A stretch of DNA of 64,000 nucleotides, taken from IMG/VR virus record IMGVR_UViG_3300033070_001497, positions 45,315 to 109,314 of that record; one strand, written 5' to 3'. The position numbers were made by a program, and so were the translations under genes. The DNA is from a virus. Its lineage: Duplodnaviria > Caudoviricetes. Shown in pieces: positions 4,398-22,460 of this stretch; position 1 is the first letter of the stretch, and each line of letters begins with the position of its first letter. The notes under the pieces were generated by a model, which was not told the DNA's origin, searched no databases, and worked only from the letters and a program-made list of their open reading frames with translations.

Positions 4398-6146
4398 ATG
4401 CCCAACGAATTCTCCAACGAGTACATCCAGTCACAGGGAGCCCAAGGCGGATCGGCCGGCTTCAACGCGATCATCGGCGAGCTGTACACCCAGCCTGATG
4501 GGAATTGGCCAGCGCCTCCAGCGATAACCGATCCACAGAATGGCGAATCGATCCAATACGCTGGCTCGAGGGCCGGCGCTAAGCCGTCGATCTTCAACCG
4601 GTACTCGATCTTCTTCTTCAACAACAGGACATCGAACTCGACCACCCCAGAGGACTACTTCGATAAGCCAGAGAAGTATGGGATCCGGGCACAGAACGAC
4701 ATGGCCACGACGGTGATCAGTCATCCGTCAGCGACGAACATCATCAAGTGGTCCAAGACTGGACAGACGAACGCAGTCGAATATGATTGGCCAGACTTCA
4801 CTTGGTGCAAGCACTACGGCGACGTGCCAAACAACTACATGGTCACTCTTCGTAGGTTCCCGATGCCATGTGCGGATGACCTGTTCGACAACTCGAAGAA
4901 CCCAGCCCCTGATATCGGTAGGATGATCACCTGGGTCGACAACTCGATGAACAGCTTCGAGTCTGTTGGGATGAAGTTCAGCCATGGGATGACATGGAAG
5001 AAGCTGACAGCCGACATCCAAGAGGTCGAGTACCAAGGCGCATACCAGAACGAAGGACTGGGACTCCAGAACGATTACGCTGGAGGCGGATACAAGGGAA
5101 CCATAGCCAGATCAGCTAACACTGTAGGTAAAGCGATAGTAGCCGCATCCGCAGCAACACAGGAAGGGTTCGGGAAGAATAACCTCGCTAACCCGAACAT
5201 GGACACGTACAACCCGTACGGCGAGAACAGGAACGTCACATTCGGACCAGTGGACATCATCCGCGAGATGTACATCCGTGAGAAAGGGCTCGAGTTCACG
5301 CAGGAATTCTCGCTGAAATTCGAGTATGAGCTCAGATCGATCGATGGCATCAATCCGAAGGTCGCGTTCATGGATCTTCTTTCGAACATACTCATCTGCA
5401 CCGCGAACAAGGGCAGCTTCTGGGGCGGAGAGGTGAGGCACTACGGTGGTTACGCCAGGAAGGTCAAACCTTTGGGAGACCCCAGTATGCTCGAGAAGGG
5501 CAATTTCCAGGGATACGTCAAATCGATTCTCCAAAAGCTCATGGGCCGGCTCAGCAGTCTGACAGATGGACAGGGTTTCTCTTTGGCTGGCCTAGGAAAC
5601 GCCGCAAAGACCATTGGTTCGAACATCCTAGGAAACGTGCTGGGTGGATCGCTCGACAACATGGGCCGGCCACAAATCCATGGGCTGAATGCCCTGCTGA
5701 CCGGCGAGGACACTGGCGAGTGGCATGTGACCGTCGGGAACCCTGCCAATCCGATGATCTCTGTTGGCAACCTTATCCTGGAGAGCACGGACATTGCGTT
5801 CGATGGATCATTGGGCATCGACGACTTCCCATCGAGGATGATCGTCGAGTGCAAGCTCAAGCCAGCCAGGCCTAGGGACAGAAACGACATCATGGCGATG
5901 TTCAGCCGCCATGGTCGAATGTACATCACGGATCCGCCGACCGCTTCAAAGTACGCCGGCGTCTTGGAAAAGGGCGGCCTTAACCCACACGCGAGCAACG
6001 ACATCTCTGGAGCTGGAGCCGACAAGGGCAAGTATTTCAACGAGGACAGCCTAAAGCAGATCAGGGAAAGCGGGGTCGCTTCCAGATTCCCGAACCACAT
6101 GAAGGACCCTGGATTGCTGACACAGGCTGCCAGGGGCATCGATTGA
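4398..6146 (+). CDS. Baseplate/tail-tube junction protein (gp48-like, tube fold)
   Basis: GLEFTQEFSLKFEYELRSID and GNLILESTDIAFDG...DFPSRMIVECKLK resemble tube-fold baseplate proteins; lies directly upstream of the gp53-like gene. Confidence 0.45.
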   Translation: MPNEFSNEYIQSQGAQGGSAGFNAIIGELYTQPDGNWPAPPAITDPQNGESIQYAGSRAGAKPSIFNRYSIFFFNNRTSNSTTPEDYFDKPEKYGIRAQNDMATTVISHPSATNIIKWSKTGQTNAVEYDWPDFTWCKHYGDVPNNYMVTLRRFPMPCADDLFDNSKNPAPDIGRMITWVDNSMNSFESVGMKFSHGMTWKKLTADIQEVEYQGAYQNEGLGLQNDYAGGGYKGTIARSANTVGKAIVAASAATQEGFGKNNLANPNMDTYNPYGENRNVTFGPVDIIREMYIREKGLEFTQEFSLKFEYELRSIDGINPKVAFMDLLSNILICTANKGSFWGGEVRHYGGYARKVKPLGDPSMLEKGNFQGYVKSILQKLMGRLSSLTDGQGFSLAGLGNAAKTIGSNILGNVLGGSLDNMGRPQIHGLNALLTGEDTGEWHVTVGNPANPMISVGNLILESTDIAFDGSLGIDDFPSRMIVECKLKPARPRDRNDIMAMFSRHGRMYITDPPTASKYAGVLEKGGLNPHASNDISGAGADKGKYFNEDSLKQIRESGVASRFPNHMKDPGLLTQAARGID

Positions 6147-6147
6147 C

Positions 6148-6155
6148 AATACATA
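6148..6155 (+). promoter_or_regulatory. Putative late promoter AATACATA
   Basis: 4 nt before ATG 6160. Confidence 0.55.
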
Positions 6156-6159
6156 ACGC

Positions 6160-6690
6160 ATGCAGATCGCTCTATTGGACCTTAAGGCCACGATGGATCG
6201 TGATGGTGTGAAGATGATCGACTTCCTGGACAACAACTTCACTGTGAATTACCTGTCCCCAGACTTCCAGGTCATGCGGATCGTCAAGGTGGAGGAACAC
6301 CACCTCTGCAGGATCGACCTGATCGCGTTCGAGGCCTATGGATCAGTGGATCAGGTGGACGCTGTTCTCAAGTTCAACATGATCACTAACCCATTCTCGA
6401 TGGAGATCGGCGACATCCTAGTCATTCCTTCCCTATCATCGGTCAGCAGCTTCTTCAAGCGATCGGCCCAGGCCCAATCACACACGATCCTGGACACGAA
6501 GTCGATATTCATCGACACCAGTAGGGCCAGCAAAAAAGACGCCGCTAGGCTCGAGCAGTTGGCTCGGATCGCTTCCAAGAGGAAGAACGGCGCATCGGAG
6601 ATCAAGCCGACTAACTTGCTCAGGAACGGTGAGGTTCCATTCGCGACAACCGGCGGAGCCCTGAGGCTGGCCCCTAACGCGACCAAGTGA
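6160..6690 (+). CDS. Baseplate wedge protein gp53-like (LysM-like)
   Basis: RIDLIAFEAYGS...AVLKFNMITNPFSMEIGDILVIP is the gp53/LysM pattern. Confidence 0.75.
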   Translation: MQIALLDLKATMDRDGVKMIDFLDNNFTVNYLSPDFQVMRIVKVEEHHLCRIDLIAFEAYGSVDQVDAVLKFNMITNPFSMEIGDILVIPSLSSVSSFFKRSAQAQSHTILDTKSIFIDTSRASKKDAARLEQLARIASKRKNGASEIKPTNLLRNGEVPFATTGGALRLAPNATK

Positions 6691-8222
6691 GCACCGAAAG
6701 GACCATACTTCCTCTGTTGGATCCGACCATCAAGGTCGATCCACTCATGATCGAGGACCAGGAATCCGACGAGGCCAGGGCCTCGCTTGCGGGTGGAGTA
6801 GACCCAGACCTTCTGAACGAGAACTCCGCTAGGGCCGGCGCATGGATGCCCATGGTCGCAGTCAGGTCGATCATGTTCGATAAGACGGAGATCAAATACC
6901 TCAATGTGAGCCTTGGGTCGAAGATCCCAAGGGTGACTCTCACGATCAAGGACTCTGCGCAGAAGTTCAACATCAACTTTCCTCTCGATGGAGATGTGAT
7001 CTCGGTCTACCTGCGCCCTCCGGACAAGGACAATCAGCGGCCGATAAGGATCGACTTCGACATACTCTCGATCAACTCCTCGCCAAGCACACAGAGCTAC
7101 ACGTTCAGCGGCATCATGAAGATCCCTGGATTCTTCGGCGAGGTGTGCCGCTCGTTTCCATCTGCAAGCAGCTTCGACCACCTGATGGATGTCTGTGAAT
7201 CGGTCGGCCTTGGATTCGCATCGAACGAGACGACCATGGACGATGCGATGAAGAGGATCTGTGCGTTCGAGACATACGAGACGTTCGTCTCACAGTCCGT
7301 CCAGAACTGCTTCAAGAACGATGACAGTTTCTTCACTTGGTTCATTGATCCATACTACTACCTCTGTCTGGTCAACGTCAACAAGCAGTTCTCGCTCGAG
7401 GACAAGCTGGATGAGATCAACCTGAGCTATTCGGTGCCATTGGCTGGCATCGAGGGCCAGCAGGGCACCCAAGACACCATCAAAGGGTCGTTGGTCCTAA
7501 CCAACAAGCTCGAGATGAATGGAATGAACACCTTCATCGAGCAGTTCTCGCTCGAGAACAAGAGCGCAAATGTGTGGATCGAGAATGGTTACAAGCGGCA
7601 AGTCCAGTACTACGACATGGAGGCCGACGATCCTACCTACGTCAGGAACTTCATCGATCCATTGACGACACCAGGATCTGAGAACGAACAGATCCTGATG
7701 AAGGGCAGGAGGGACGAGGACACGTACAAGCGATCGATCAAGTACAAATGGATCGGCAACCAGTTCTCTAACACCAACGGCGGCCACGTCCATGACAACT
7801 ACATCTTCGCCAGGGTGCTCAATTTCCAGAACCTGATGGAAGTCGAGAAGATGTCGCTCAAGGTCAATCTGGCTGGCATGAACTTCTACCTTTCGAAGTA
7901 CGCTCGAGTGCCGGTATTGATCTACCAATCTGGCCAAAACTCCAAGAACGCCCAACTCCTGAAAAAGAGGGACGAGGACCTCGGTGAGACACACGATTCT
8001 GACCCAAACAAGACGCAAGCTTTCAACGCTGCATCCTCGGTTGGGCCTGATGGATCACAGGATGGCCTGAACCCAACCGATCAGGTCAAGAACGAGTTCC
8101 TGTCTGGGTACTACGTGATCAGTTCGATCGACTATAAATACACGCCGCCTGGGCCAGTCAAGCAGTCGCTGGTGTTGGTAAGAAGGGAATGGCCGATCCC
8201 AGCTAGGAACAAGGATGTCTAA
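6687..8222 (+). CDS. Baseplate hub protein (gp27/GpD-like)
   Basis: Located between gp53-like and gp5-like genes; C-terminal FLSGYYVISSIDYKY...QSLVLVRR is typical of hub proteins. Confidence 0.6.
   Translation: MSTERTILPLLDPTIKVDPLMIEDQESDEARASLAGGVDPDLLNENSARAGAWMPMVAVRSIMFDKTEIKYLNVSLGSKIPRVTLTIKDSAQKFNINFPLDGDVISVYLRPPDKDNQRPIRIDFDILSINSSPSTQSYTFSGIMKIPGFFGEVCRSFPSASSFDHLMDVCESVGLGFASNETTMDDAMKRICAFETYETFVSQSVQNCFKNDDSFFTWFIDPYYYLCLVNVNKQFSLEDKLDEINLSYSVPLAGIEGQQGTQDTIKGSLVLTNKLEMNGMNTFIEQFSLENKSANVWIENGYKRQVQYYDMEADDPTYVRNFIDPLTTPGSENEQILMKGRRDEDTYKRSIKYKWIGNQFSNTNGGHVHDNYIFARVLNFQNLMEVEKMSLKVNLAGMNFYLSKYARVPVLIYQSGQNSKNAQLLKKRDEDLGETHDSDPNKTQAFNAASSVGPDGSQDGLNPTDQVKNEFLSGYYVISSIDYKYTPPGPVKQSLVLVRREWPIPARNKDV
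8133..8140 (+). promoter_or_regulatory. Canonical T4-type late promoter TATAAATA (inside upstream CDS)
   Basis: Exact TATAAATA about 75 nt upstream of start 8215. Confidence 0.45.
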
Positions 8223-10752
8223 CCAAGGATTCATAGACGGAGCCCTAAACAGGTTCGCGAAGACGAACTTGGCCTATGAGAACAACCCTCTCATAGCCAT
8301 CCAGGACCCAACTTACCTTGGGTTCAAGCTCATGTTCCTTTTCGACCAGCCGATGAGCGGGCTTCTGTCGACGGTCGACCACCCTAACACCGCGATGGGT
8401 TACCTCTCAAGGATTGGGGACGACAACCGTGCGTACTACCTCTCACAGTTCGTGGATACCCTGAGAAGGATCAATGGCCATTGCCCATGGTTCTTCCAAT
8501 CGATCAGTGGATTAGATGAGGCATGGAAGCGTGGGTTCCATGAGGAAGAATTCAAATCTAGGCTGATCGATCGGAAGATCACGATCGGATGCCTTGAGAG
8601 CATCGACCTCAGGATGACTGCCCTGATGGATCTCTACCGGAAGGCCTGTTTCGATTGGAATTACTACCGCCAGGTTGTGCCATGGAACCTAAGGACCTTC
8701 AGTGTCTATGTCTATGTCTATGAGTCGAGGACGATCAACCGAACAGGCACGCCCACCCGCGAAGTTGAGGGCCCGCCTTCTCCTAATCCATCGATGACAG
8801 AGAGGATGCTCGGCAAGGAGATCCTTTCCGATTTCGATGATCCATCCCAGATCAACAACACCACGAATCGACTGCTTTTCAGGTTCGATCAGTGTGAGCT
8901 CATCCCAGACGATTCCTCAGGGATGCTCGAAAAGGTCGGCAACGATAAGATGGAGATGGCTTCTCAGAAGTTCAGCTTCTCCTACCGCCGCGTCTATGAG
9001 GAGAACCTGTACAACTTGTTCTCCGATCGGTTGCTATCTGATGAGATGATAGGCAACCTCGATAAGGCTGCGTTGGATGACTCTGAGATCATAGGCGGTT
9101 ACGCCCTCAACTCTCCTGACAACCCTACGCCTGGCAAGATAGATCCGAAGACATTCAAGGACAAGCTCAAGGAACAGGTCGATAAGTTCAAGGAGAAGGC
9201 TAAAGCGAAGTTGGATGCTTTGGGCAACGTGTTCGATCAGGACACAGTCCTTAAGACAGTGGAGGATCAGCTTCTTGCAAGGGCCAAGAACTTGGTCGGT
9301 AGCCAAGTCGGTAAAGCTATACTAGGCAATGTGTATGGTTTCTCCCCAGGAGGAATCGTTGCAGCCGCTGGCGCTGGGATCGATGGGCTTGTACAGCAAG
9401 CGATCACCACCGCTGGTGGGCCTGGCGCATCGTTCACGAACACGATCGATAAGCCTAGCGGACAGTACTTCGATGAGGTCACGAACAATCAGGTCACCAC
9501 GCCTAACGGCAATGTGGCTACTGGCCCATCGCTCAATAACGTCCTTGAGATCGCGAACGGTGAATCGAATGGCGGCGCCTCGTTGGCCAACGTGCTAGAA
9601 CAGGCCAGCGGTGAGCTGACAGATGGACCATCAGCCGATAACATCGAAGGCTCTGCCACCGGCGAGATCCAGGAAGGAGAATCGCCTTCAAACGTCAACA
9701 TGGATCCGCCTCCTGGCTCTCTTACAGGAGAATCAGCCGCAAATACCGAGGGCGAACCCGCTGGAGAGGTCGGTGGCGGCCCGTCGACCTCTAACACCGA
9801 AGGAATACCTACTGGTACCGTTGGAGGCGGCGAATCACTCTCTAACATCACCGAGGAGGCCTCTGGCAGGATCCAGGACGGTCAAAGCGTCGGCAATAAG
9901 ACCACCCTTGCTGGAGGCAAGATCCAGGAAGGACAGTCTGTTGGCAACTCGCTTACTGACGCATCCGGTAAGATCCAGGATGGCCAATCGGCCTCGAATG
10001 TCGAGCAGGAACCGGCTTCGAGCGGCTACTCTGGCGTATCGGCTGAATCCGGAAAGGCAAGCGGAAGCATCCAACCCGGCCAATCGGTCGGAAACGTAGA
10101 ACAGGAGCCTACCCCATCTGACTACTCGGGCGCATCCACAGAGAACAAAGAGAGGGATGCCTCGGGACAAATCCAAGACGGACAATCCGTTTCGAACCGC
10201 AATGGCATCCCAGATCCAAGCCCAATCCATGGCGAATCGGTCAAAAACACCGTACAACAAGGAGGAGGACAGATCTATGAGGGAAGCAGCACATCGAATC
10301 AGCTCACCGAAGCGAACGGCGAATTGCCTGACGGCCCATCGCGCCTGAATAGGACAGACGAGGATCCTATCGGCAAATCCCAGACTGGTGCATCTCTGGA
10401 GAACAAGATCGGGTTGGCGCATGGAAGCGTCGCCACTGGGCCTTCACTATCCAACCAGGACGTTTTCCATTCGAAGGCCAATCTCAACGACGCGGAAGGC
10501 ATCCCAGGCGGCAACCCAGTCAAGGATCGGTTCGAGCCATCTATGAACAACAAGACTGAGGATCTTCTCAGGTCATCGATCCAGGATGGCCCTTCTGGAC
10601 TCAACCGTCTTTCGGAAAGAGGCTTGACCGACAAAGGCGGAGATCAACCGTCGGAAGCCAATGGCACCGAATCGATCAATGAACGGATAGCAGACGGTCC
10701 ATCGAAAGGAAACTCGTTGGGGCCTCCTCCACATGAGAACGTGAACCGCTGA
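8215..10752 (+). CDS. Baseplate/tube-fold protein (gp54-like N-terminus) with a long C-terminal repeat region
   Basis: Globular N-terminus (WFFQSISGL...KITIGCLESIDLRMTALMDLYR) followed by about 23 G-x-S-x-x-N repeats. Confidence 0.45.
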   Translation: MSNQGFIDGALNRFAKTNLAYENNPLIAIQDPTYLGFKLMFLFDQPMSGLLSTVDHPNTAMGYLSRIGDDNRAYYLSQFVDTLRRINGHCPWFFQSISGLDEAWKRGFHEEEFKSRLIDRKITIGCLESIDLRMTALMDLYRKACFDWNYYRQVVPWNLRTFSVYVYVYESRTINRTGTPTREVEGPPSPNPSMTERMLGKEILSDFDDPSQINNTTNRLLFRFDQCELIPDDSSGMLEKVGNDKMEMASQKFSFSYRRVYEENLYNLFSDRLLSDEMIGNLDKAALDDSEIIGGYALNSPDNPTPGKIDPKTFKDKLKEQVDKFKEKAKAKLDALGNVFDQDTVLKTVEDQLLARAKNLVGSQVGKAILGNVYGFSPGGIVAAAGAGIDGLVQQAITTAGGPGASFTNTIDKPSGQYFDEVTNNQVTTPNGNVATGPSLNNVLEIANGESNGGASLANVLEQASGELTDGPSADNIEGSATGEIQEGESPSNVNMDPPPGSLTGESAANTEGEPAGEVGGGPSTSNTEGIPTGTVGGGESLSNITEEASGRIQDGQSVGNKTTLAGGKIQEGQSVGNSLTDASGKIQDGQSASNVEQEPASSGYSGVSAESGKASGSIQPGQSVGNVEQEPTPSDYSGASTENKERDASGQIQDGQSVSNRNGIPDPSPIHGESVKNTVQQGGGQIYEGSSTSNQLTEANGELPDGPSRLNRTDEDPIGKSQTGASLENKIGLAHGSVATGPSLSNQDVFHSKANLNDAEGIPGGNPVKDRFEPSMNNKTEDLLRSSIQDGPSGLNRLSERGLTDKGGDQPSEANGTESINERIADGPSKGNSLGPPPHENVNR
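9500..10745 (+). repeat. Degenerate ~17-aa (~51-nt) coding tandem repeat, consensus G(E/K/Q)IQDG(Q/P)SxxNxxxxAS
   Basis: GRIQDGQSVGNKTTLAG / GKIQEGQSVGNSLTDAS / GKIQDGQSASNVEQEPA and others, visible in the translation. Confidence 0.85.
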
Positions 10753-11510
10753 TGGAAACCTACCGCGATAACCTACACACGACATCTTGGCTAGGGGAGG
10801 TAGTTGATGTCAACGACCCGCTGAAGATCGGACGAATCAGGGCCAAGGTCTTTGGAAAGTTCGACGAGCTGAACACTGAGGACATCCCATGGGCCACCCC
10901 TGCGACGTCATGGTCAGGTGGCAGCGGCACAGGAGGCGGCTCATTCTCGGTCCCAAAGAAAGGATCGATCGTCGCGATCCAATTCAACAATGGTGACCTA
11001 TACCATCCGGAGTATAGGTTCAACCAGAACCTATCGAAAGAGGTCAAAGATCTGATCAAGGATTCGTACACGAATGCCCATGTCGTGGTCTATGACACCG
11101 TAACCGACGGTGGCATGAAGGTCTACTTCACGGAGAAAGATGGGCTGATGATCGATTACAAGTCGACGAAGCTGAACATCAAGCCGGACAATTCTATCAG
11201 CATAAAGAACCCGAATGGCGATGAGGTCGAGATGAAGAACAACGGCAACATCACGATCAACGTCGAAAAGACCGCGAAGATCAAGTGCATGGATGCTAAG
11301 ATTGTAGCACAGAACTCGATCCATTTGGACTGTTCGAAAGCCGCATCCATCAAGCTGGGATCAGTTGCTACCAATTCGATCATCCTAGGAGAACCTTTCC
11401 TTGCTCTGTTCAACGCACACGTCCATGTAGGCAACCTCATGTACCCTACTAGCCCTCCTATAACGCCAGCACCAGCATCTCTTCTCAGTCTGGTTTCAAA
11501 GACCCAATGA
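10752..11510 (+). CDS. Baseplate central spike (gp5 N-terminal OB fold / gpV-like), no lysozyme domain
   Basis: WLGEVVDVNDPLKIGRIRAKVFG...IPWA...VPKKGSIVAIQF; C-terminal FNAHVH (HxH metal-binding tip) and TSPP. Confidence 0.85.
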   Translation: METYRDNLHTTSWLGEVVDVNDPLKIGRIRAKVFGKFDELNTEDIPWATPATSWSGGSGTGGGSFSVPKKGSIVAIQFNNGDLYHPEYRFNQNLSKEVKDLIKDSYTNAHVVVYDTVTDGGMKVYFTEKDGLMIDYKSTKLNIKPDNSISIKNPNGDEVEMKNNGNITINVEKTAKIKCMDAKIVAQNSIHLDCSKAASIKLGSVATNSIILGEPFLALFNAHVHVGNLMYPTSPPITPAPASLLSLVSKTQ

Positions 11511-11511
11511 C

Positions 11512-11973
11512 ATGCCGCTAGACAAAGACCAACTGAAAGAGAGCATCAAAACCGACCTCTCGACGACGATCGCCCAGAGCTTGACCGAAACACAGGAAGC
11601 GCTGTCAATTGCACTGAAAGACTCCGATGGTGGTTTCTATTCTGCGCTTACTAACATCAAGAATCGGGCCGAAGCGTTGGCTGGAACCGATGTTTCACAA
11701 TTCGTTCCAGCAGTTCAACTGATCGTTTCAGAGGAGTTCGCAAAGACCATCTCAAAGAAGATCGTCGAGGCTCTCAATTCAACTTGGGTAGAAAAGGTCA
11801 GTGAAGCCTTAGCGAAGTGCATATCGACTCGGATAGACGAGTACATCAAGAGCGCAGAAATCAGGGTACCTCCTGGCGCATCAGTCTATGTTCCTCCTCC
11901 ATCAACTGGAGTCGGTGCAAGCGCAGGCCAAGCCTATGTCCAAGGAATTTCGAACCCTGCGACTATTAGGTGA
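11512..11973 (+). CDS. Spike-associated hypothetical structural protein
   Basis: Directly follows the gp5-like gene; contains IDEYIKSAEIRVPPG. Confidence 0.55.
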   Translation: MPLDKDQLKESIKTDLSTTIAQSLTETQEALSIALKDSDGGFYSALTNIKNRAEALAGTDVSQFVPAVQLIVSEEFAKTISKKIVEALNSTWVEKVSEALAKCISTRIDEYIKSAEIRVPPGASVYVPPPSTGVGASAGQAYVQGISNPATIR

Positions 11974-11981
11974 GATAGATA
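11974..11981 (+). promoter_or_regulatory. Putative late promoter GATAGATA for the bS1 gene
   Basis: Immediately after the upstream stop and 24 nt before ATG 12006. Confidence 0.55.
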
Positions 11982-12005
11982 CTTACCACTTCTAAAGGGA
12001 ACTAC

Positions 12006-13238
12006 ATGAATCGTCCGGCAATCCGGAAATCGACGGCTCCACAACTAGAGAGCCTCCTGGCCAGCTACAAGGTCAAGCTTGAAACTACCGAGAATCCAAT
12101 GTTGCCACCGGCAATAGACTGGGATGCGTTAAGCGCCCAATCTGGGAAGAGGCTGGCCAACAACGTGAGGGTCAAGCGTCACAGAGGAGATGAGAAGACC
12201 CAGATCTTCTGCCATGAGCCTTACGCCCAGGAGCTGTACGAAGCTTACTTCGGTGAGCTCGTTGGCCTAGTGGAACCGAAGGTCAACGCAGTAGTCAAGG
12301 GAAAGGTCATCTCTTGCAACGCCAAGACCGCATCGATCGACATCGGATGGCGTGAGGAAGCGATGATCGATCTTGGCCGCGAGGACAAGTCGTACCTTCC
12401 TTACATCGAAACAGGGAACGAGTTCGAGGTCATCGTGGAAAAGGTAGATCCGAACGGAAAGAAGCCGGTGATCGTCTCGCTCACGAAGATGGTGAAGCGA
12501 CGCAACGAAGAGGAGCTGATGAATTCCATCGGAAGCCGTGTCGCTTTCCCTGGCAAGGTCGAAAGCATGATCCAGAACGCCGGCTACTACGTCGACATCT
12601 CTGGGATCAGGTGCTTCATGCCAGGATCGTTGGGTGGCATGAACAAGATCGTCAACTTCGAATCCCTCGTCGGCAAGGAGCTCTACGTAGTTCCTATCGT
12701 CTATTCGAAGGAGAAGGAGTGCATCGTTGTCTCACACCGCAAATACCTGGAATCGTTGATTCCGGGTGAAGTCGAGAAACTCATCGTGGGCCAACGCTAC
12801 GACGGGTTCGTGACTGGCACCAGCGTGCATGGCATCTTCGTCGAGTTCAATGGCTGCCTCACTGGCCTGATCTCAAAGTCAGACATGTCAGAAGAGGTCA
12901 CGGAGCTCTTCAGCAATGGCAGGATCAAACCAGGTGACACCATCAATTTCTTCCTGAAGGAGATATTGGAAGACAATCGATTGGTTCTCTCGATCAACCC
13001 AGTTGAACCGTCTCCTTGGGAGACGATCGAGGACCGGCTGAAGCTCAACACGAAAGTGAGCGGAAAGGTCAAGAAGATCACCAAGTTCGGTGTGTTCATC
13101 GAGCTCGAGCCTAAGATCGTTGGCCTTTTGCACCGGTCTTACCTCGATGAGGCGGATGTGTTCGAGGTCGGCCAGACCGCTGACGCGGTCGTGGTCAAGA
13201 TCGATGTTCCAGGCAAGAAAGTATACCTGGCAAGCTGA
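12006..13238 (+). CDS. rpsA: Ribosomal protein bS1 homologue (4 S1/OB domains)
   Basis: D1 VVKGKVISCNAKTASIDIGWREEAMI; D2 GYYVDISGIRCFMPGSL...LVGKEL...IVVSHR; D3 GQRYDGFVTGTSVHGIFVEFNGCLTGLI; D4 SPWETIEDRLKLNTKVSGKVKKITKFGVFIELEPKIVGLLH. Confidence 0.85.
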   Translation: MNRPAIRKSTAPQLESLLASYKVKLETTENPMLPPAIDWDALSAQSGKRLANNVRVKRHRGDEKTQIFCHEPYAQELYEAYFGELVGLVEPKVNAVVKGKVISCNAKTASIDIGWREEAMIDLGREDKSYLPYIETGNEFEVIVEKVDPNGKKPVIVSLTKMVKRRNEEELMNSIGSRVAFPGKVESMIQNAGYYVDISGIRCFMPGSLGGMNKIVNFESLVGKELYVVPIVYSKEKECIVVSHRKYLESLIPGEVEKLIVGQRYDGFVTGTSVHGIFVEFNGCLTGLISKSDMSEEVTELFSNGRIKPGDTINFFLKEILEDNRLVLSINPVEPSPWETIEDRLKLNTKVSGKVKKITKFGVFIELEPKIVGLLHRSYLDEADVFEVGQTADAVVVKIDVPGKKVYLAS

Positions 13239-13336
13239 TGGTAGTAGCATCATTCATCCTGGGCGCAATCCTAGGAGCGGCTGTGATCGGGTATGTCATC
13301 ATCCGGTTGATCAACGAACAGGGTCCGAATTTCTGA
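13238..13336 (+). CDS. 32-aa single-pass membrane microprotein
   Basis: MVVASFILGAILGAAVIGYVIIRLINEQGPNF*; TGATG-coupled to the bS1 stop and fills the gap; below the ORF-track cut-off. Confidence 0.6.
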   Translation: MVVASFILGAILGAAVIGYVIIRLINEQGPNF

Positions 13337-13338
13337 TC

Positions 13339-13346
13339 AATAGATA
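13339..13346 (+). promoter_or_regulatory. Putative late promoter AATAGATA
   Basis: 4 nt before GTG 13351. Confidence 0.6.
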
Positions 13347-13350
13347 GCCG

Positions 13351-14601
13351 GTGAACACCCGGCCATCCCCAATCGATTTTACCGATCCAAGGATCGTTTT
13401 CAGGTTCTCATGTGAGTTTCTGCATGGCGATCCGCTCGTGGGTCGAATCACGGAAGCCATCGGCCTCCATGTCATCAAGCAGGGCCAGCCCAACCCATAC
13501 CAAGCCAGGCTCACCAAGTTAGGCAAGGAGCGGTGGAAACTCAGCACCGGTTTCATGGATTACTCCCACGGGAGGCTTAGCATGATCAACACGATGAGGT
13601 GGTTGGCCGAGTCATCGAAGACCGATAGCCACTGTGGGATGGTCCTCGATTTCAGCGCGTTCGATGGAAAGAACAACGTCACGTATCGCGTCGATCCTAT
13701 GAAAACAGTGCTAGGGTTCGATGATCGGTTGGCGCTCGAATCGTTCTCGGAGACGAGCCATGCTCCACAATCGATGAGGACTGCGATCGATCGCCTCAAC
13801 ATGAGCCAATCGTCGCCGATCTATGGATGCGGAATTTCCCTTGGGTCAGAACATGGAACGGACTTCACAAGGGTCAAGGATGGATATGTCAGGGTGAAGT
13901 ACATCGGCGGCGAATCTTACCCACAGAAGCTTTCTGAGGGGTTGGCCATCGTCGAGAGCATCGCTAAGTGCATATCCGAAGGATACCGATCCCCGGGCGT
14001 ATACAACGAGTCTGAGAGGTCAACGTTCATCAGGATGGTGAGCGAATCGACTTCGATCAAGGGATCCTGTGCGGATTACCAGACTTTCAGGCAACGGTAC
14101 CCGGAGATGAGACTCCGAACCAACATGTCAGACAACCCAAGGGAGCTGTCGGCGATGTTCAACCGGTTCAAGCCTTTGCTCATTTCGCTGTTGGAAGGAT
14201 GCGAGATCGATGGCAATGAAGCGGAGATAAACTACGACAGCGATCGTGGGATGCTACAGATCAAAGAGGCCAAGCTCACCGTCAAATCGATCGAAAGGAT
14301 AGACCTTCTAGATTGCACGATCAAAGGTGGCAGGCTCCACAAATGCCAACTGTTCGAGTGTGAGTGCAAGTCATCCACGCTGAGCTGTTGCTACACGAAA
14401 GAAACGTCGGTCAAGAACTGCACAGCGGTCGATTGCTACCTGGACCTATTCAGTGAGATCAACGAATCGATCATCGATGGCCGCATCACCGAGATCAAAT
14501 GCTCGGTCGAGAAGTCTGCGATCAGGAACGGCCGGATCGGAAAGAGAGCCAAGATCGATGCGCTCACTGAGATCTACGAAAATGTGACCAAGGAACAATG
14601 A
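13351..14601 (+). CDS. Degenerate amidoligase-like protein with C-terminal beta-helix repeats
   Basis: FSCEF, KTDSHCGMVLDFS and GYVRVKYIGGESY echo the amidoligase GxExE / TxxxCGxHxH / xIEFRxxGG motifs; C-terminal LLDCTIKGGRLHKCQLFECECKSSTL repeats. Confidence 0.5.
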   Translation: MNTRPSPIDFTDPRIVFRFSCEFLHGDPLVGRITEAIGLHVIKQGQPNPYQARLTKLGKERWKLSTGFMDYSHGRLSMINTMRWLAESSKTDSHCGMVLDFSAFDGKNNVTYRVDPMKTVLGFDDRLALESFSETSHAPQSMRTAIDRLNMSQSSPIYGCGISLGSEHGTDFTRVKDGYVRVKYIGGESYPQKLSEGLAIVESIAKCISEGYRSPGVYNESERSTFIRMVSESTSIKGSCADYQTFRQRYPEMRLRTNMSDNPRELSAMFNRFKPLLISLLEGCEIDGNEAEINYDSDRGMLQIKEAKLTVKSIERIDLLDCTIKGGRLHKCQLFECECKSSTLSCCYTKETSVKNCTAVDCYLDLFSEINESIIDGRITEIKCSVEKSAIRNGRIGKRAKIDALTEIYENVTKEQ

Positions 14602-15356
14602 CACTCACGCCGACAACCCAAGAATTCATCGAGAGGGTCAAGCAGGAGCTGACTGTCGCTTGTGCGGTGCCGTTCGATCTCAAGGCCAAGGAGATCACTA
14701 GGCTGATCGAAGATGCGTATGGGTGGTTCACTTACTCATACGAGGATTCGGTTGAGGATCGGCTCTACGTCATACCAGTCTCGTCTTTCTCGGTCCCTCT
14801 GTTCAAGGCTAAGCGAGTCCTGCCGCTGCCCACCTGTGTGGTGGCTGTGAATGGGGTAAAGAAGCTTCGGGAGGATTTCCTGCCATCCTTCTCGTTCGAT
14901 GGCACCACGGACATCACGGCCGAGAAAGTGATCTTCAAGGATTCTGCCAACCTTGGCTATGGATCGGAATCCCTGATGTACTACGCGCTCAACCTCTATT
15001 GGATCGATCTGGCATCCCACATCCTCAACCACACGGTCTCCTGGACGTTCAACAAGAACACCGGGCTGCTCTTCTTCGGTGGAGAGACGCCTAACCGGGA
15101 CATCGTGGTCCAGTGCCAAACCAAGATCCCGCTGGATGATCTGATGAAGGACCATCTTTTCTACCGCTATGTGGTGGCCAAGGCCAAGATCCAGCTCTCC
15201 AGGATGATAGGAACGTTCGATTTCTCACTCGTCGGCAACGTGAAGATCAACTACGAGCTCGTAAGGGAAGAGGGCAAGGAGGAGCTACAGGAGGTCAAGG
15301 ATCGGATCAAGGGCGACAACGCCATGGACTTCTTCTTTACCAGTGGCGGCGGTTGA
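14598..15356 (+). CDS. Neck/head-completion protein gp13-like
   Basis: EITRLIEDAYGWF...; FYRYVVAKAKIQLSRMIGTFDFSLVGNVKINYELVREEGKEEL matches the gp13 C-terminal pattern. Confidence 0.75.
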   Translation: MTLTPTTQEFIERVKQELTVACAVPFDLKAKEITRLIEDAYGWFTYSYEDSVEDRLYVIPVSSFSVPLFKAKRVLPLPTCVVAVNGVKKLREDFLPSFSFDGTTDITAEKVIFKDSANLGYGSESLMYYALNLYWIDLASHILNHTVSWTFNKNTGLLFFGGETPNRDIVVQCQTKIPLDDLMKDHLFYRYVVAKAKIQLSRMIGTFDFSLVGNVKINYELVREEGKEELQEVKDRIKGDNAMDFFFTSGGG

Positions 15357-15362
15357 TTGTCC

Positions 15363-15370
15363 AATAGATA
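15363..15370 (+). promoter_or_regulatory. Putative late promoter AATAGATA
   Basis: 4 nt before GTG 15375. Confidence 0.6.
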
Positions 15371-15374
15371 GGAC

Positions 15375-15743
15375 GTGCCAATCGATTTCTATTTCAGGAT
15401 GCCAGAGGATCCTAACTACTCGAGCTACGAGACGGAGGTGGCCGAGGAGCTGGACCAATTCTTGCAGCAGGTCGAGATGATCCTGACCACCCGGAAGGGC
15501 CAGGTCCTTGGAGAGCCGAAGTTCGGGGCCAACCTCGAGGATTTCCTGTGGAACTACAGGGCCTCGTCTTACCAGATCGAGAACGAGGTCAAGTCCCAGA
15601 TCGAAACTTGGTGCAGCGAGCTCGGACAGAAGTTCAGCTACAAAGTCGAGGCAAGCTTCATCCCAGGTGACATAAGCGACTCGATCCTCGTCGATATCAC
15701 CATCGACGGAACAAAAGTCCTAGGGATAGGAGTGAGACCATGA
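15375..15743 (+). CDS. Baseplate wedge gp25-like
   Basis: MILTTRKGQVLGEPKFGANLEDFLW is the GPW/gp25 signature. Confidence 0.85.
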   Translation: MPIDFYFRMPEDPNYSSYETEVAEELDQFLQQVEMILTTRKGQVLGEPKFGANLEDFLWNYRASSYQIENEVKSQIETWCSELGQKFSYKVEASFIPGDISDSILVDITIDGTKVLGIGVRP

Positions 15744-17506
15744 ACATCCTGAACCCGCACAGAATAAAATACTCCGAGGTAGAGTCGGACGTGCATGGCT
15801 ACCTTGGCAAGACTTACGCCCAGAAGCGATCGGTTTTCTCCGTCGCTTCCGTGTACGGCCAGATCCTGAAGGTGCTCAAGTCATTCTGGCAGCTGCTCAT
15901 GCTCATGTTAGAAGACTCGATCGTCGAGAACAACATCTACACCGCTTCAAAGCAGAGGGCGATCTATGGCCTTTCCAGGCTAGCTGGCCACAACCCCACC
16001 AGGGCTCTGTCGGCCCAAGGCACGATAAGGATGAAGATCAAGGCGAGCGCCCTGGCTGATCTGAACGCCTCTTACATCGATATCGTCGATCGGACAACTC
16101 TCAAGTGCACAGACAACGGCCTCCCTTATTTCATCCAGCTCGGAGAATCCCTGGACTCGATCAGGATCAACATCTCTGACAGGGAATTTCACCGAGTGAC
16201 GATCGTCCAGGGCAAGGTGGAATCACAATCCCTGATCGGCACCGGACAGGCACTGCAATCGTTCAACATCAAGGCCAAGAAACCGATAGAGAATGAGCTA
16301 GTCTTCGTCAAGGTGAACGGCGTGCCCTATGAGGTGGTCGATTCTCTCTACGACATGAGGAAGGGAGAGAACCTTTGTATAGTCAAGACCAGCGTCATCG
16401 ATGGAATTGACCTGACATTTGGAAACGAGGACTATGGAGTCATCCCTCCATTGGGCTCGCTGATCACCGTCGAATACGTGACATCGGATGGTTTCGAAGG
16501 CAACATCTACAGCAAATCCGATAGGATCGAATTCAAGTGGGATGGCGAAGCGATCACCGACACCGGCGAACAGGTTGACCTGAACGAGGTCCTCGACGTT
16601 TTCATCGATAAGCCGATCGTCCTAGGCGCTGACAACGAGCCAATCGAACTCACAAAGCTCATTGCACCGAAGACATCGAGGTCTTACGTTCTGGCTAACC
16701 CAGACAACTATGTGAATCTCCTCTCCAGGTTCAACTACTCGTATGTCGATGCTTACACGACGTTCGACGACGATTACCTGGACGATGACAACGTCGTCTA
16801 CCTTTTCCTGATCCCTGACCTGTCAAGACGGCTGGAAAAGAACACTGACTACTACACCACGCCATTGACTTCGTTCTATCTCGACACAGACGAGAAGGAT
16901 GCGCTGGTCTCGTGGATCCACCAATCCGGTAGGATGATCGCTTCGACTGAGCTCCAGATCGTAGACCCGATCGTCAAGAAGTATGCACTCAACATCTTCC
17001 TACGGATCTTCGATTGGGCAGATGCTTCGACGGCGAGGTCAATGGCGATCTCCAAGGTGACTGACTACATGCTCACGGTCAACCGCCGAGACAAGATCCC
17101 GAAGTCAGACCTCATCGCCATCCTCGAGGGAATCAAGGGAATCGATTCGGTGCACGTCAATTTTGTCTCTGAGGAGAACGAAAAGGCGATCATCGATGGG
17201 TGGTACACGAAGCGAAGCTACCAGACTGATCGGATCCGTGGGCTCAAGACGTTGGTGGAGACCAGAGTCAATCTGACAGATGGAGATGACCCAAGGCTTG
17301 GACTGGATGATTTTGGCGACATCAAGATCGGACTAAACGAGATGCCGCTCTTCCGAGGAGGATGGTACGATCGATTCGGCGCCTACTACGACGATGGACT
17401 CACCGACCACAACAGCTGTTCCGTCAATGTGGTCATCAAGGAAGTGATACAGGACAGCGTGGCTAAGAGGATCGCGGCGAAGAACAAGGAAGCGCTCAAG
17501 AGATGA
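15740..17506 (+). CDS. Baseplate wedge gp6-like (baseplate J)
   Basis: IYTASKQRAIYGLSRLAGHNPTRALSAQG, LTFGNEDYGVIPPLGSLITVEYVTSDGFEGN, GADNEPIE; follows gp25. Confidence 0.85.
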   Translation: MNILNPHRIKYSEVESDVHGYLGKTYAQKRSVFSVASVYGQILKVLKSFWQLLMLMLEDSIVENNIYTASKQRAIYGLSRLAGHNPTRALSAQGTIRMKIKASALADLNASYIDIVDRTTLKCTDNGLPYFIQLGESLDSIRINISDREFHRVTIVQGKVESQSLIGTGQALQSFNIKAKKPIENELVFVKVNGVPYEVVDSLYDMRKGENLCIVKTSVIDGIDLTFGNEDYGVIPPLGSLITVEYVTSDGFEGNIYSKSDRIEFKWDGEAITDTGEQVDLNEVLDVFIDKPIVLGADNEPIELTKLIAPKTSRSYVLANPDNYVNLLSRFNYSYVDAYTTFDDDYLDDDNVVYLFLIPDLSRRLEKNTDYYTTPLTSFYLDTDEKDALVSWIHQSGRMIASTELQIVDPIVKKYALNIFLRIFDWADASTARSMAISKVTDYMLTVNRRDKIPKSDLIAILEGIKGIDSVHVNFVSEENEKAIIDGWYTKRSYQTDRIRGLKTLVETRVNLTDGDDPRLGLDDFGDIKIGLNEMPLFRGGWYDRFGAYYDDGLTDHNSCSVNVVIKEVIQDSVAKRIAAKNKEALKR

Positions 17507-17742
17507 CAACTGATTCATTCTACCGCAAAATGCTTGCCCGAGAGAGGGTCAATATGGGATTCGACTATTCGAACGGAATGCTGTCCAAATTCGTGTCTCC
17601 TAGGTTGTATGGGAACCCGATGCTCGCTGAATTTCTCAACCGGATAGACAAGGTGATCGTCGACATGGCCGAATCAATCAAGCGCGTCCAATTCTACTTC
17701 GCGTTCACAATCGATAAGAACGATCTAAGCATCAACCAGTGA
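17503..17742 (+). CDS. Small baseplate-associated hypothetical protein
   Basis: ATGA/GTGA coupled between gp6 and the next gene. Confidence 0.65.
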   Translation: MTTDSFYRKMLARERVNMGFDYSNGMLSKFVSPRLYGNPMLAEFLNRIDKVIVDMAESIKRVQFYFAFTIDKNDLSINQ

Positions 17743-20700
17743 GCTACAAGTACTACAACTTCTACAACAAGAGAGGCGAGTACCTGAACCTCGATTACGA
17801 CGCTGACTCTGATTGCTGGACCGGTAGGATCCAACACGGAGTCATCTCTGAGGGGCTGGTCGAGGACGCACAGATCTACATCCTAGAACAGGTCTACAAC
17901 CAAACTTCTGGGCTAGTGGAGAGCGCGTTTCCTGTGGGCTCCCCAGTGGTCTGTGATGGAGGAATCGTCTTGCAGGGAGCTGGATCGTCTGGCATCGATG
18001 GCACGTATTGTCCTGATGGCACCAGTGAAACCTTTCCAATGTGGACCCAGGTCGGAGGTACCACTTTCCAGGATAGCATCTACTACATCTACGTAGGAGG
18101 TGGCATCTATTTGTGGGTGATCACCAGCGGAGGATCATACTCCCAATCCCCGTTCTACGCAAAATACGCTGCCTACAACGTAGATGGGACTTTGCCGTTG
18201 CCCTCGGATTTCTTTGTGACCTCTGGTGGATTACCAGAAGTTCCTAGTTTCGGTTCAGTAGAGCTCATGGGTGCCGGTCCATTCCTAAACGTCTACTTTT
18301 CGCCGACTGGCGCATCCGAACACTTCCAATATGGATTCTCTGCTAACCCTACCGCTGATAACTGGCTCGTGAAGGAGCGCCAAAAGAACTATGGTCTGGA
18401 GATCAATAGTTTCACGATAGTTGGTGTGACTGGCAACGATCCAGGAATGAAGATAGTAGATGAGGTTAGGTCGGAAGCTCTTCAAATCAACATCGGGTTC
18501 CAGCCATCCACCGAGGCCAATTACAGCAATTGGCTCACGATCGAAGACGGCTTGGGCCATGTCATCGCTAGGATAGAAGTCTATGGCGAGGGAGAGAACG
18601 AGGACGAGAGGCTCAAGGACATCCTCCAGAACTTCGGACACGACATCCTCAGTGAGGACATGCCAGTGTTCGACAAGACGGACATCAACGAGCCAGAGCC
18701 TGATTGGATATTCCTCAACCGCAAAAGGAAGGAGTTGATCACGGAGTTCGAGAAGATCTTCCCTTACATCGGCTCTTACCGGGCACTGATCAACATCATC
18801 AAGTTCTTCGGATACCAGGATGTCCACCTAAAGGAGTACTGGAGGAACGTGGACCCTCGTTCGGTCAACTACGGCAAGTTCAAGCATACCGACATCATCC
18901 AGATCTTCGACAAGACGGCCAACTTCAGGGATTCCCTGAGCGTGCCGAACAAGATCTACAAGAAGACCAACCTGTTTGGTCTGTTCTACGACATCACCAA
19001 GGAGACTGGGGAGTACGACGAGAATGGGTACCCGGTAGTAGAAGAGGTGTTCAGCTTCACTCCAGAGGAAGTGCTCATCAAGATCTTCGCGCTAAAGAAC
19101 AAGCTCAAGAAGTACTTCCTTCCGACGAACGCAAGGATCATCGACATCGTCGGCGAAGCAGTCTACTACATGCGGTTGGACACCACCGCAAGGACAAGCT
19201 TCTGCCGTGTGGACGCTGTCCAGCTTTCGCTGCATCCAACGTATGAGATTCTGCCAAAGCCATGCGGCTACATCCAGGACCTGAGGCCCCTGTACCACTA
19301 CGGGTGCCCGGTCGGGCCAGATTTGCTGCTTGATGGCACGACTGACCTATTCTCATGGAGAATTGGGATCGGCAACACGGCGTACGTCGGTGGCATCCTT
19401 GACGGGATCCAGACCTATGCGCTATCGGTAAACATTCCGTTCGGTCCAACATCGTCGATCGTCAGCGCAACATTCCAGAGGGATCCTGACACCGGCCAAA
19501 CCGCTTATTCTGGTGCAGAAATTGCGAATGGCCTGATAGCAGCATGGAATGATGCAGCCGAGACAGATGAGAGGCTGGCGCCATTCACACTCTACCAAGA
19601 AGGCGGAAGTTCCGGAATCATCAGGATCCTACAGACTGAGCCTGGCAGCACAGGACAGATCTTCGCGTACTGGTACAGCAACACGACTGGCGTCATCCCA
19701 TCTGGCAAATTCAGCATCCCAGGCCCTACGGGTGGCACGGCAACAACGATCGACATCTCACCCGGTGGAACGTTCGGGCCGAGCGGCGCCCCGATGTCGT
19801 ACTACAACGACTGCTTCCTGGCTTACTTCGACAACATCAACCTGGAGGTCGCCGAACTCAACGACGATGAGGACATCCCTGTAGGGTACCCAATCACCCT
19901 GGTCAACACCACGTTTGACATCTCATGGGATGAGGCCGAGGTGACATTCAATGACATCGATCAGACCGATTTTGGGCAGACTGGTCCAACAGGGCAAACG
20001 TACTATTCCCAGTTCAATCAATCCTTCCAAGTCACCGGTTGGACTTCGATCTATCCAAACCCTGGCCTGCCAAGTGGAGCGACTTACCTGAGCATCGCAG
20101 CTACCGCTGGTATGACCGGATTCCCTTCGAACTTTCCGACCCAGAATGTCTACTCCTGGATAAACCTTGGCCGCTACAACTTCTACGAGATGCAGTGGAA
20201 AGTGACATTCGATGGAGACATCGATTGGAGCTATGATTCCGGTAGAAAGACGGTGAGTGAACTAGAAAGGCACTCGCTGATCCTGCCTTACGCTGGCACA
20301 TACACTGTAGAGCTGAGAATGTGGGATCTCTACAACACAGTAGCGATCAAGATCGATCCAGCCGCGATATGCGTGAAGATGCAGGAATGCGATTTCATCG
20401 GTTGGTACCAGATGCTCGAGAAGGAATACACCTTCGACACGCCAAGGTACGAGGTGCAATCGGATTACTCAAAGAATGACCCGAGGTACCGGAAACCCAA
20501 GCAGCTGACATGGGATGAGTACGTTTCCACATGGGAGTTGCCATTCCATCCGAACGAGGAGATCGGCATGGCCGAGATCAGCTACAACTCGCTGGATGGG
20601 ATCGAGTTCTACCAGAACATCACTGATGAGGATCGTCATCCGTTGGCAGATCGGAACCCATACTACTTCCACAAGATCGGCAAGGTGGCCAGGTTCAAGG

Positions 20701-21890: not shown

Positions 21891-22460
21891 ATGGCAATCG
21901 AAACTACTCAACTCAACGGCACCGATTCCGTAGCTGCGGGCAGGATCACGATCAACGACAACTTCGCCACGATCAAGGACGCCCTTAACCGGGTCCTGAG
22001 CGTGTTCGATATTGCCACTGGTAAGATCAACAACTACGGGTTTGGCAGCGACAACGACATTGAGACCGAGGACCTGATAGTCCGAGGATCAACTGGCGGC
22101 GGGATCTCTGTGCTCTCCGGTGGAATCAGCATCAGCCTTGGTAATTTGACCATTGGTGGAGCTGGATACATCGAGTTCGGCAGCGGCTCCAGTGTCAAGA
22201 TCGAGAAGCTCACCAAGCTCTTCAATATCTCGCCTGGCAACATCCCAGTCTGGAATGTGAGCGGCACTGGAGCTACTGGTGGCACAGGACCGATTGGCTA
22301 CTTTGGTCTGCCGAGGCTCGACACCGCGACCATCAATGATATCAAGTTCCCACAAGTTGGGGCCCTCGTCTACGATGTGTCAGTGGGCACGACCGGCGCA
22401 CTTAAGTGCTGCGTTGAGTCTGGCGTCACTGGGACCTGGCAAACAGTCACACTCACCTGA
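21891..22460 (+). CDS. Short baseplate/fibre protein
   Basis: N-terminal GTDSVAAGRITINDNF, typical of T4-like baseplate/fibre anchor segments. Confidence 0.55.
   Translation: MAIETTQLNGTDSVAAGRITINDNFATIKDALNRVLSVFDIATGKINNYGFGSDNDIETEDLIVRGSTGGGISVLSGGISISLGNLTIGGAGYIEFGSGSSVKIEKLTKLFNISPGNIPVWNVSGTGATGGTGPIGYFGLPRLDTATINDIKFPQVGALVYDVSVGTTGALKCCVESGVTGTWQTVTLT

Follow-up and report, generated by a model that had tools for sequence, protein, structure and literature searches.

Genes for ribosomal protein S1 have been noticed in phages on several occasions. A 2013 study of clean viromes showed them, without genomic context (PMC3877843), and in 2019 they were set aside as ambiguous (PMC6375957). 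In 2020 a 'possible rpS1' was described from huge phages, together with a Shine-Dalgarno (SD) correlation and the hypothesis, which is also the one considered here, that the phage protein substitutes for that of the host; the general idea of a phage S1 redirecting translation is therefore already published, Al-Shayeb et al. having left a role 'on or off the ribosome' open (PMC7162821). For the Microcystis jumbo phage PhiMa05 it has likewise been proposed that a phage bS1 replaces the host protein; this bS1 groups with Vampirovibrio-like cellular genes and looks recently captured with five other ribosomal protein genes (PMC13157829). The subject of the present analysis is a bS1-like gene, P0001, of a large, uncultured wastewater phage. 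It lies in a stretch of 64,000 nucleotides (nt), called the window below, which is part (positions 45,315 to 109,314) of the single IMG/VR virus record IMGVR_UViG_3300033070_001497 (109,314 bp; CheckV completeness 38%, giving a genome of roughly 290 kb).

The S1 genes of the 2020 huge phages (LR756500.1, LR745206.1 and LR756504.1) and of the Lak phages fall in the same clade as P0001, come from SD-less genomes and have the same proposed role, and the S1 of Lak-B2 has the same N-terminal hallmarks as the source family, FDW ... KVYSHESYAQDLY. The source phage differs from them in being smaller (~290 kb), rich in guanine plus cytosine (GC; 53%) and from wastewater, and its S1 gene lies inside the baseplate genes, whereas in Lak-B2, LR745206 and LR756504 it lies away from them. 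In contrast to PhiMa05, P0001 belongs to what appears to be an old phage-only clade and is the lone ribosomal protein gene in the recovered part of the genome. With E. coli bS1 (PDB 9gut, 6h4n) it shares the order of domains D1-D4, the uS2 helix, equivalents of D39 and K43 and the RNA-binding D3 and D4, but it has four domains, not six, ~70 extra N-terminal residues, a helix insertion and a separate clade. The bS1 of low-GC Gram-positive bacteria (PRK06676), which we take to be about 390 amino acids (aa) long with four S1 domains, is also similar and matches at 1e-39, although with 136.7 bits against a cut-off of 368, and the phage protein keeps an anchor helix of the Gram-negative type. The gene class and the hypothesis having been published in 2020, the discovery is incremental. 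As far as the literature was searched, a description of the lineage (clade, locus, extended anchor, promoter/leader) is not in print, and the 2020 huge-phage work gives none of the clade, synteny, anchor or leader (PMC7162821).

On balance we consider it probable that the bS1 of this phage lineage docks on the 30S subunit of its host, probably a member of the Bacteroidota, late in infection, and serves phage mRNAs that lack SD motifs. The gene and the parts of its product are listed here with their window coordinates.

12006..13238, + strand: phage bS1-like gene, P0001; ATG-initiated open reading frame (ORF) of 410 aa
12006..12191, + strand: N-terminal extension, aa 1-62; residues 1-30 predicted disordered and variable (profile of the predicted local distance difference test, pLDDT; 67-member alignment)
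12192..12275, + strand: putative ribosome-anchor segment, aa 63-90; strand-like K-(V/I)-(Y/F)-(S/C)-x-E-P, then helix YAQELYEAY (aa 73-82)
12276..12485, + strand: domain D1, aa 91-160; D112 and R116 at the positions of E. coli D39 and K43
12537..12755, + strand: domain D2, aa 178-250, motif GYYVDISGIRCFMPGSLGG; most conserved domain
12783..13001, + strand: domain D3, aa 260-332; canonical S1 RNA-binding domain
13041..13235, + strand: domain D4, aa 346-410; canonical S1 domain with F361, F364, H376 and K404/K405

The S1 protein and its phage clade

Pfam found four S1 (PF00575) stretches in P0001 (E 1.4e-25), colinear with D1-D4, as expected from an earlier note on this DNA, made from the letters alone, which had called the product a four-domain bS1 homologue; the range given there, 11974-13336, is the ORF at 12006-13238 plus the upstream motif and a downstream 32-aa ORF. 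The NCBIfam rpsA models matched P0001 at 2e-48 to 5e-46, and the protein is colinear with rpsA model positions 3-340 of 516, which correspond to D1-D4 (in TIGR00717, positions 3-340 align with P0001 residues 78-408). A phmmer search of the PDB aligned E. coli bS1 residues 5-310 to residues 78-381, the identity to bacterial bS1 being about 25-30%. An AlphaFold2 model built on the alignment of 67 family members (pLDDT 90.3, predicted template-modelling score 0.70) showed disordered residues 1-30, a helix at 74-82 and then four OB domains. The top Foldseek matches of this model in the PDB were all ribosome-bound bS1, the best being 9gut_B (E 1.3e-26). PDB entries 28jw and 9tvu ('S1 homologue') were considered as phage structures and rejected, as they are of a Chlamydomonas chlororibosome protein. 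When the short query of residues 36-130 was searched against the PDB, one weak E. coli-type match was all that was returned.

The N-terminal extension is real, although the size of ~85 aa first given to it was overstated: ~70 residues precede the helix at 73-82, and D1 runs from ~91. Its conservation is the lowest in the family (mean column conservation 0.17 over the first 62 residues), and residues 39-62 bear (F/I)DW(D/E) and the basic stretch N-x-x-(I/V)-K-(K/R)-H, both of them motifs of the family.

Relatives of P0001 are numerous. More than 1,000 were found at E <= 1e-10 in the protein database, some 120 of them 370-416 aa long, 47-54% identical and on contigs of up to 326 kb. In an exhaustive profile-free search, ~70 clusters of ~380-aa proteins outranked the 540-780-aa cellular bS1 proteins (~30% identical), and at least 589 IMG/VR viral contigs carry an S1 relative.

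The phylogeny against cellular rpsA that had been suggested was run on the D1-D4 region (FastTree, 129 rows; IQ-TREE LG+G4, 70 rows; 34 to 58 cellular bS1 sequences; unrooted). Both programs separated phage-type from cellular bS1 with support of 100. P0001 is indeed a relative of bS1, but the phage sequences do not branch within the cellular ones. The S1 proteins of LR756500, LR745206, LR756504 and Lak-B2 fell inside the phage clade, three of them confirmed by IQ-TREE, and the bS1 proteins of Bacteroidota, Acidobacteriota and Nitrospirota were all on the cellular side of the split. No donor lineage can be named from the unrooted IQ-TREE tree, in which Bacteroidota bS1 is no closer to the phage clade than is that of Acidobacteriota or Nitrospirota; a scan of genome contigs for a donor was biased by its search pattern. 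As the scores are far below the rpsA cut-offs and the clade lies outside cellular bS1, P0001 is best described, on its sequence, as a diverged paralogue of bS1 and not an orthologue. The same data indicate a single old phage clade and not a recent capture.

Phage-encoded ribosomal proteins blur the line between virus and cell, and here S1 is no stray capture: a very large lineage of environmental phages passes it on vertically as a core trait. The S1 signal that clean viromes have given since 2013 is probably due to this lineage. With its anchor, leader and fixed locus the lineage also offers an experimental target for the question of whether phages remodel ribosomes in SD-independent hosts. 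Phage-type S1 was also seen on contigs binned into metagenome-assembled genomes labelled Flavobacteriaceae, Erysipelotrichaceae (rumen) and Muiribacterium (L096, L097 and L105). These are probably phage contigs swept into the bins, and the host calls are unreliable.

Putative ribosome anchor and RNA-binding domains

E. coli bS1 attaches to the ribosome mainly by a short N-terminal helix whose residues Phe5 and Phe9 stack on Phe32 of uS2, with help from salt bridges that Asp39 and Lys43 make to the zinc pocket of uS2 (PMC4288201). In alignments, the phage helix occupies the position of the bacterial (S/D)F(A/E)xLL motif and, on that basis, is homologous to the uS2-binding helix. The family form is Y-A-Q-E-L-Y-x-x-Y, with Y73 in 44, Y78 in 48 and Y81 in 41 of the 67 members. 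HMMER paired Y78 and F82 with E. coli F5 and F9 and MAFFT paired Y73 and L77 instead, a difference due to a one-residue insertion in the helix. Position 112, equivalent to D39, is D in 40/67 members and position 116, equivalent to K43, is R or K in 48/67. At the sequence level, both a bS1-type helix and D1 residues of the D39/K43 type are therefore present, which agrees with the earlier suggestion that the docking determinants are kept.

Structure prediction with uS2, also proposed earlier, was carried out with the E. coli protein. P0001 residues 62-178 and uS2 gave an ipSAE (interaction prediction score from aligned errors) of 0.63, and the best of three controls gave 0.00; of 80 solved complexes 58 attain the mark of 0.63, as do 2 of 110 mismatched pairs. 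Contact agreement between runs was at least 78% and the partner pLDDT at least 79. In the model, residues 63-69, 73-74, 77-78 and 80-81 contact uS2 residues 31-36 and 42-44, F32 included, and R116, E117 and E118 contact uS2 residues 203-208. This predicted interface, with the F32 region and residues 203-208 of uS2, matches the solved one, and may be the model's memory of the solved S1-S2 complex. Because a like complex has been solved and the uS2 is not that of the host, the model is taken to indicate likeness and not binding.

Among the uS2 contacts is a segment ahead of the helix, the conserved K-(V/I)-(Y/F)-(S/C)-x-E-P, which is specific to the phage S1 family. Further upstream are the (F/I)DW(D/E) motif and the basic stretch, so that only the first ~30 residues are variable.

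An anchor of this kind need not have a ribosome as its target. Host S1 serves T4 RegB and Q-beta replicase off the ribosome, the replicase using the same D1-D2 surface. The phage protein might accordingly have its function away from the ribosome: it could chaperone RNA, stabilise mRNAs, regulate its own synthesis or translation in general, or assist a phage enzyme as cofactor. We regard this as unlikely, though more deserving of attention than the other alternatives. The residues of S1 that bind uS2 also bind Q-beta replicase (PMC4288201), so the anchor could serve a phage partner, and the canonical RNA-binding domains that such a role would use are conserved. No partner was identified, however; the steady neighbour of the gene is amidoligase-like and has no known RNA link, and in the complex model the anchor sits on uS2 in the way seen in the solved structure.

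The RNA-binding core is the best conserved part of the protein. Mean column conservation is 0.57 for D2, 0.56 for D3, 0.44 for D4 and 0.36 for D1. In D2, G193, P206 and N213 are invariant and F204 is present in 66 of 67 members. In D3, T270, G276, F278, T286 and G287 are invariant (consensus VTGTxxFGxFVEFNxCLTGLIH). D4 is the best Pfam stretch (347-406), with Y or F at 361 in 58/67 members and F or L at 364 in 63/67 (consensus (Y/F)GxF and GLLHxS). The conserved positions in D3 and D4 are the canonical RNA-binding positions of the S1 fold. D5 and D6 are absent.

The earlier note had read these features differently, as a reduced and diverged mRNA-binding arm on an intact ribosome anchor. On that reading the phage S1 would be dominant-negative: it would outcompete host bS1 and block leadered host mRNAs, leaderless or coupled phage mRNAs being spared. 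The absence of D5 and D6, the departures from the family majority at two RNA-binding positions of D3 (H275 and S290), and an anchor that is not only kept but extended by a conserved segment contacting uS2 in the model would all suit this role. A diverged arm is not supported, however: D2 and D3 are the most conserved domains, not relaxed, and D3 and D4 keep their RNA-binding positions. Nor need its reduction be crippling, as D1-D3 are the minimal S1 that keeps the 30S activities in E. coli (PMC3858243). The remaining evidence on this proposal concerns the phage mRNAs.

Promoter-like motif, leader and translation style

Two elements precede the gene.

11975..11981, + strand: ATAGATA promoter-like motif, 24 nt before the S1 start codon
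11983..12005, + strand: S1 leader with pyrimidine-rich box TTACCACTTCTAAAG (11983-11997) at a fixed distance from the ATG; no SD

ATAGATA occurs nine times in the window against 2.45 copies expected, a count that none of 100 shuffles reached. All nine copies are on the + strand, as are nearly all of the window genes, and eight are in gene-free spacers (the ninth, at 53281, is inside the called ORF 53251-54003). Together with the base before it, the motif is (A/G)ATAGATA and differs by one substitution from the T4 late consensus TATAAATA, which is located at -13 to -6 (PMC1524935). It is therefore a putative late-type promoter, and the claim that S1 has one of its own stands: in relatives the motif GATATATA is present 21-50 nt before S1 in 52/60 unique loci, from which S1 appears to be a self-contained leadered unit across the lineage. 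The mRNA of the next gene is likewise leadered in nearly all relatives. The motif lies 3-8 nt before the gp25-like gene in 36/60 unique loci, and in relatives it was not found before translationally coupled genes.

At many genes of the source phage, ATAGATA or ATACATA (ATAGAAG at 48492) is positioned 4-7 nt before an ATG or GTG on the + strand (4384, 6149, 13340, 15364, 28125, 44964, 48492 and 63934, and also in the first 45 kb of the contig). At 44964, the motif followed by 'agccATG' suggests a gene start missed by the simple ORF caller. Under T4-like geometry, a spacing of 4-7 nt would give mRNAs that are leaderless or near-leaderless, within one nucleotide. Bacteroidota-type TAnnTTTG promoters gave only three intergenic matches in the contig, too few to use. 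In the S1-less Tenacibaculum phage PTm1 (115578-141095), a cultured, distant relative, several TAnnTTTG-type promoter-like sequences were seen, and no ATATATA-type motif was found near start codons around the gp25/gp6-like genes (25 kb). As the single S1-less control, it is too thin a basis to claim that S1 co-occurs with N4-spaced promoters.

The S1 leader contains a conserved box. The pattern TTAAC(C/A)YTTTAA at -20 to -12, with a run rich in A behind it, was found in 48 of 61 unique S1 leaders and, before four control genes, in 0/58, 1/60, 4/62 and 2/58; the nearest relative (L093, 73% identical) retains ACTTCTAAAG. The leader is predicted to be unstructured (fold z-score -0.30). The box resembles the epsilon enhancer of T7 gene 10, UUAACUUUAA (PMC9590205), and this is a resemblance only. 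The box is read as a translational signal of some kind. It would also be compatible with autoregulation, as in E. coli rpsA, which is a point in favour of a role off the ribosome. An S1-specific operator was rejected, however, since AT-rich relatives often have a looser pattern, which is also seen ahead of a few other genes.

SD usage could not be identified in the genome, in line with what Al-Shayeb et al. observed. SD 4-mers were present at -18 to -4 in 12% of 121 genes, compared with 18% in an intragenic control (simple in-house gene calls), and 38 of 82 same-strand neighbour gene pairs in the contig overlap or abut.

The likely host bears on how this is to be read. The GenBank relatives of the gp6-like baseplate protein are from huge phages, Prevotella Lak phages and cultured phages of Flavobacterium, Tenacibaculum, Chryseobacterium and Sphingomonas; no S1 match was found in these cultured phages. 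The relatives would place the source phage in jumbo-phage subgroup 2.2, defined by Iyer et al. (PMC7824862), and make a host in the Bacteroidota likely. Since relatives infect Bacteroidota, the lack of SD motifs is probably the host's own style. In that phylum SD-less initiation is the norm.

These data also bear on the dominant-negative proposal. The 4-7 nt motif spacing and the 38/82 overlapping or abutting pairs do fit leaderless or coupled translation, and the earlier view of leaderless-type phage mRNAs is borne out to that extent, there being no SD enrichment; S1 itself, however, is leadered. So, in nearly all relatives, is the mRNA of the next gene. Late timing is odd for a shut-off, and, SD-less initiation being usual in the phylum of the likely host, the lack of SD would not set host mRNAs apart. 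The partnership of S1 with leaderless mRNAs that had been envisaged also runs against the finding that in E. coli excess S1 dislodges leaderless mRNAs (PMC3858243). Displacement of host bS1 by a protein with a crippled arm is consequently improbable, given the conserved RNA-binding core, the sufficiency of D1-D3, the disfavouring of leaderless mRNAs and the leadered S1 mRNA.

Gene order around S1

The neighbours of S1 in the window are the following.

10752..11510, + strand: gp5-like baseplate hub/spike OB-domain protein (Pfam Phage_base_V 7.6e-09; PHROG baseplate families)
11512-11973: 153-aa ORF between the gp5-like gene and S1; homologues in 4/83 loci only
13238..13336, + strand: 32-aa hydrophobic ORF, gene status uncertain; its ATG overlaps the S1 stop (TGATG)
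13351-14601, + strand: 416-aa amidoligase-like gene, GTG start; ATAGATA (13340-13346) 4 nt before the GTG
14598..15356, + strand: gp13-like neck/adaptor (PHROG; Pfam Phage_T4_gp13 on the L001 and L003 homologues)
15375..15743, + strand: gp25-like baseplate wedge (PHROG)
15740..17506, + strand: gp6-like baseplate wedge (PHROG)

S1 is thus located between the spike gene (gp5-like, 10752-11510) and the neck gene (gp13-like, 14598-15356), as had been noted earlier. A tblastn comparison of 83 loci, 80 from IMG/VR and three from assemblies, showed the same order in all 83: g6687, g8215, gp5-like, a variable insert, S1, amidoligase-like, gp13-like, gp25-like and gp6-like. The identity of S1 across these loci (35-58%) goes with that of the baseplate neighbours. 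In the deep-branching P0131 and P0146, S1 is flanked on both sides, by the gp5-like gene and the neck gene; in P0136 and P0166 the one flank on the contig fits the arrangement, P0166 being without the amidoligase-like gene. The 462-kb huge phage LR756500.1 has the order gp5-S1-amidoligase-like-gp13. Judged on the flanks that each contig covers, S1 is at the same locus in 87 of the 91 relatives' loci examined. The exceptions are a 1.4-kb contig (L094) and the Lak megaphage Lak-B2 and the huge phages of the 630-kb class LR745206.1 and LR756504.1, where S1 is elsewhere, at least 100 kb from the gp6-like baseplate gene, which implies that the gene has moved at least once.

That the gene keeps its place among structural genes throughout a deep lineage, and has a late-type promoter geometry, would suit a protein that is made late, packaged and injected with the DNA to act on host ribosomes at the start of the next infection. 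T4 Alt is a precedent for delivery in the virion, acting on RNA polymerase. Such delivery would reconcile late expression with a role in takeover. We consider it very unlikely; position and timing are what speak for it, and in the Lak and Mahaphage branches the gene is far from the baseplate genes.

The gene neighbourhood is also the one argument for a structural or assembly role, in which the OB folds would be re-used in the baseplate or neck without any function on RNA or the ribosome. This is the least likely explanation of all, and hardly credible: the uS2-anchor motif and the RNA-binding positions are kept down to about 30% identity, no phage structural protein is among the Foldseek matches of P0001 in the PDB, and P0001 matched no family in PHROGs.

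We return to the reading given at the outset, a phage bS1 that serves SD-less phage mRNAs on the host 30S subunit. Its steps would be as follows. The bS1 gene would have been acquired once, in the ancestry of a broad group of large T4-like phages whose hosts are probably Bacteroidota, and inherited vertically since. Transcription from its own late-type promoter would yield a leadered, SD-less S1 mRNA. The protein would dock on the host 30S subunit via uS2, using the N-terminal helix, the D1 loop and the family-specific pre-helix segment, and with D3-D4 it would bind phage leaders that are unstructured and A-rich (in this phage A/C-rich), so that initiation proceeds independently of SD. The phage S1 would in this way supplement or replace host bS1 in the late phase, perhaps with some selectivity for phage mRNAs. 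Of all this, the homology, domain order, clade and synteny are observed, as is the conservation of the anchor, the RNA-binding positions, the promoter motif and the leader box; ribosome binding, timing of expression and selectivity are inferred.

Several observations weigh against this reading. P0001 is below the equivalog cut-offs of the rpsA models (NF004952, 165 bits against 524; TIGR00717, 157 against 577). The anchor helix, YAQELY where E. coli has FAQLF, is longer by one inserted residue, with HMMER and MAFFT in disagreement over which aromatics match, and the uS2 of the complex model is from E. coli and not from the phage host. At two RNA-binding positions of D3, P0001 has H275 and S290, whereas most of the family has F and H there (position 275, F in 34, Y in 15 and H in 14; position 290, H in 37 and S in 13; n=67). 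Many late genes look leaderless or translationally coupled, and in E. coli leaderless mRNAs are S1-independent and are disfavoured by excess S1 (PMC3858243). A factor expressed late comes late for takeover, the fixed place in the structural module could reflect a virion-linked role, and the phage S1 clade is without any cultured member.

A bolder version is a long shot: that a virion-delivered or phage-dedicated ribosome subunit, made late and perhaps with the amidoligase-like protein, reprogrammes the host 30S subunit for SD-less or leaderless initiation of the phage type, the pre-helix segment making its grip on uS2 tighter than that of host bS1. If true, this would be the first ribosomal protein shown to be a vertically inherited core gene of a viral lineage that acts mechanistically in host takeover.

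The amidoligase-like gene adjoins S1 downstream in 81 of 83 loci. The model of its 416-aa product (pLDDT 91.7) has a glutamine-synthetase-type fold followed by a C-terminal pentapeptide-like beta-helix, and its Foldseek matches are glutamine-synthetase-type enzymes and pentapeptide-repeat proteins. Pfam Amidoligase_2 is found in 19 of 38 members of the family and not in the window copy, which is substituted at several family motifs and for these reasons may be catalytically dead. Functional coupling with S1 was considered and set aside: the window copy is diverged, P0166 is without the gene, and we know of no link of amidoligase-like proteins to RNA.

Upstream of S1, as far as the gp5-like gene, lies a variable slot that measures 0.4 to 3.5 kb and whose small genes differ between relatives. 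On the other side of S1, the 32-aa ORF has one predicted membrane-spanning stretch and occupies an insertion of roughly 90 nt; it is specific to the source phage, being missing from the 73%-identical relative (which has a 20-nt gap there), L001 and L003. Megablast against GenBank phages gave no match, no Rfam family was matched in the window, and ARAGORN found no transfer RNA.

Sequence runs gave some information on occurrence. Four wastewater 'metatranscriptomic' runs from one study (X2-X5) match window positions 6000-22000 at >= 99% identity. They were rejected as evidence of S1 expression, as Logan contigs span all 16 kb at even depth; most simply, this cover is virion DNA in total nucleic acid. 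In one of the runs (X5) a variant strain has nine differing sites in the S1 ORF, of which eight are synonymous and one gives A95T, a pattern of selection that counts in favour of the main reading. Parts of the phage stretch are also contained in activated-sludge DNA runs.

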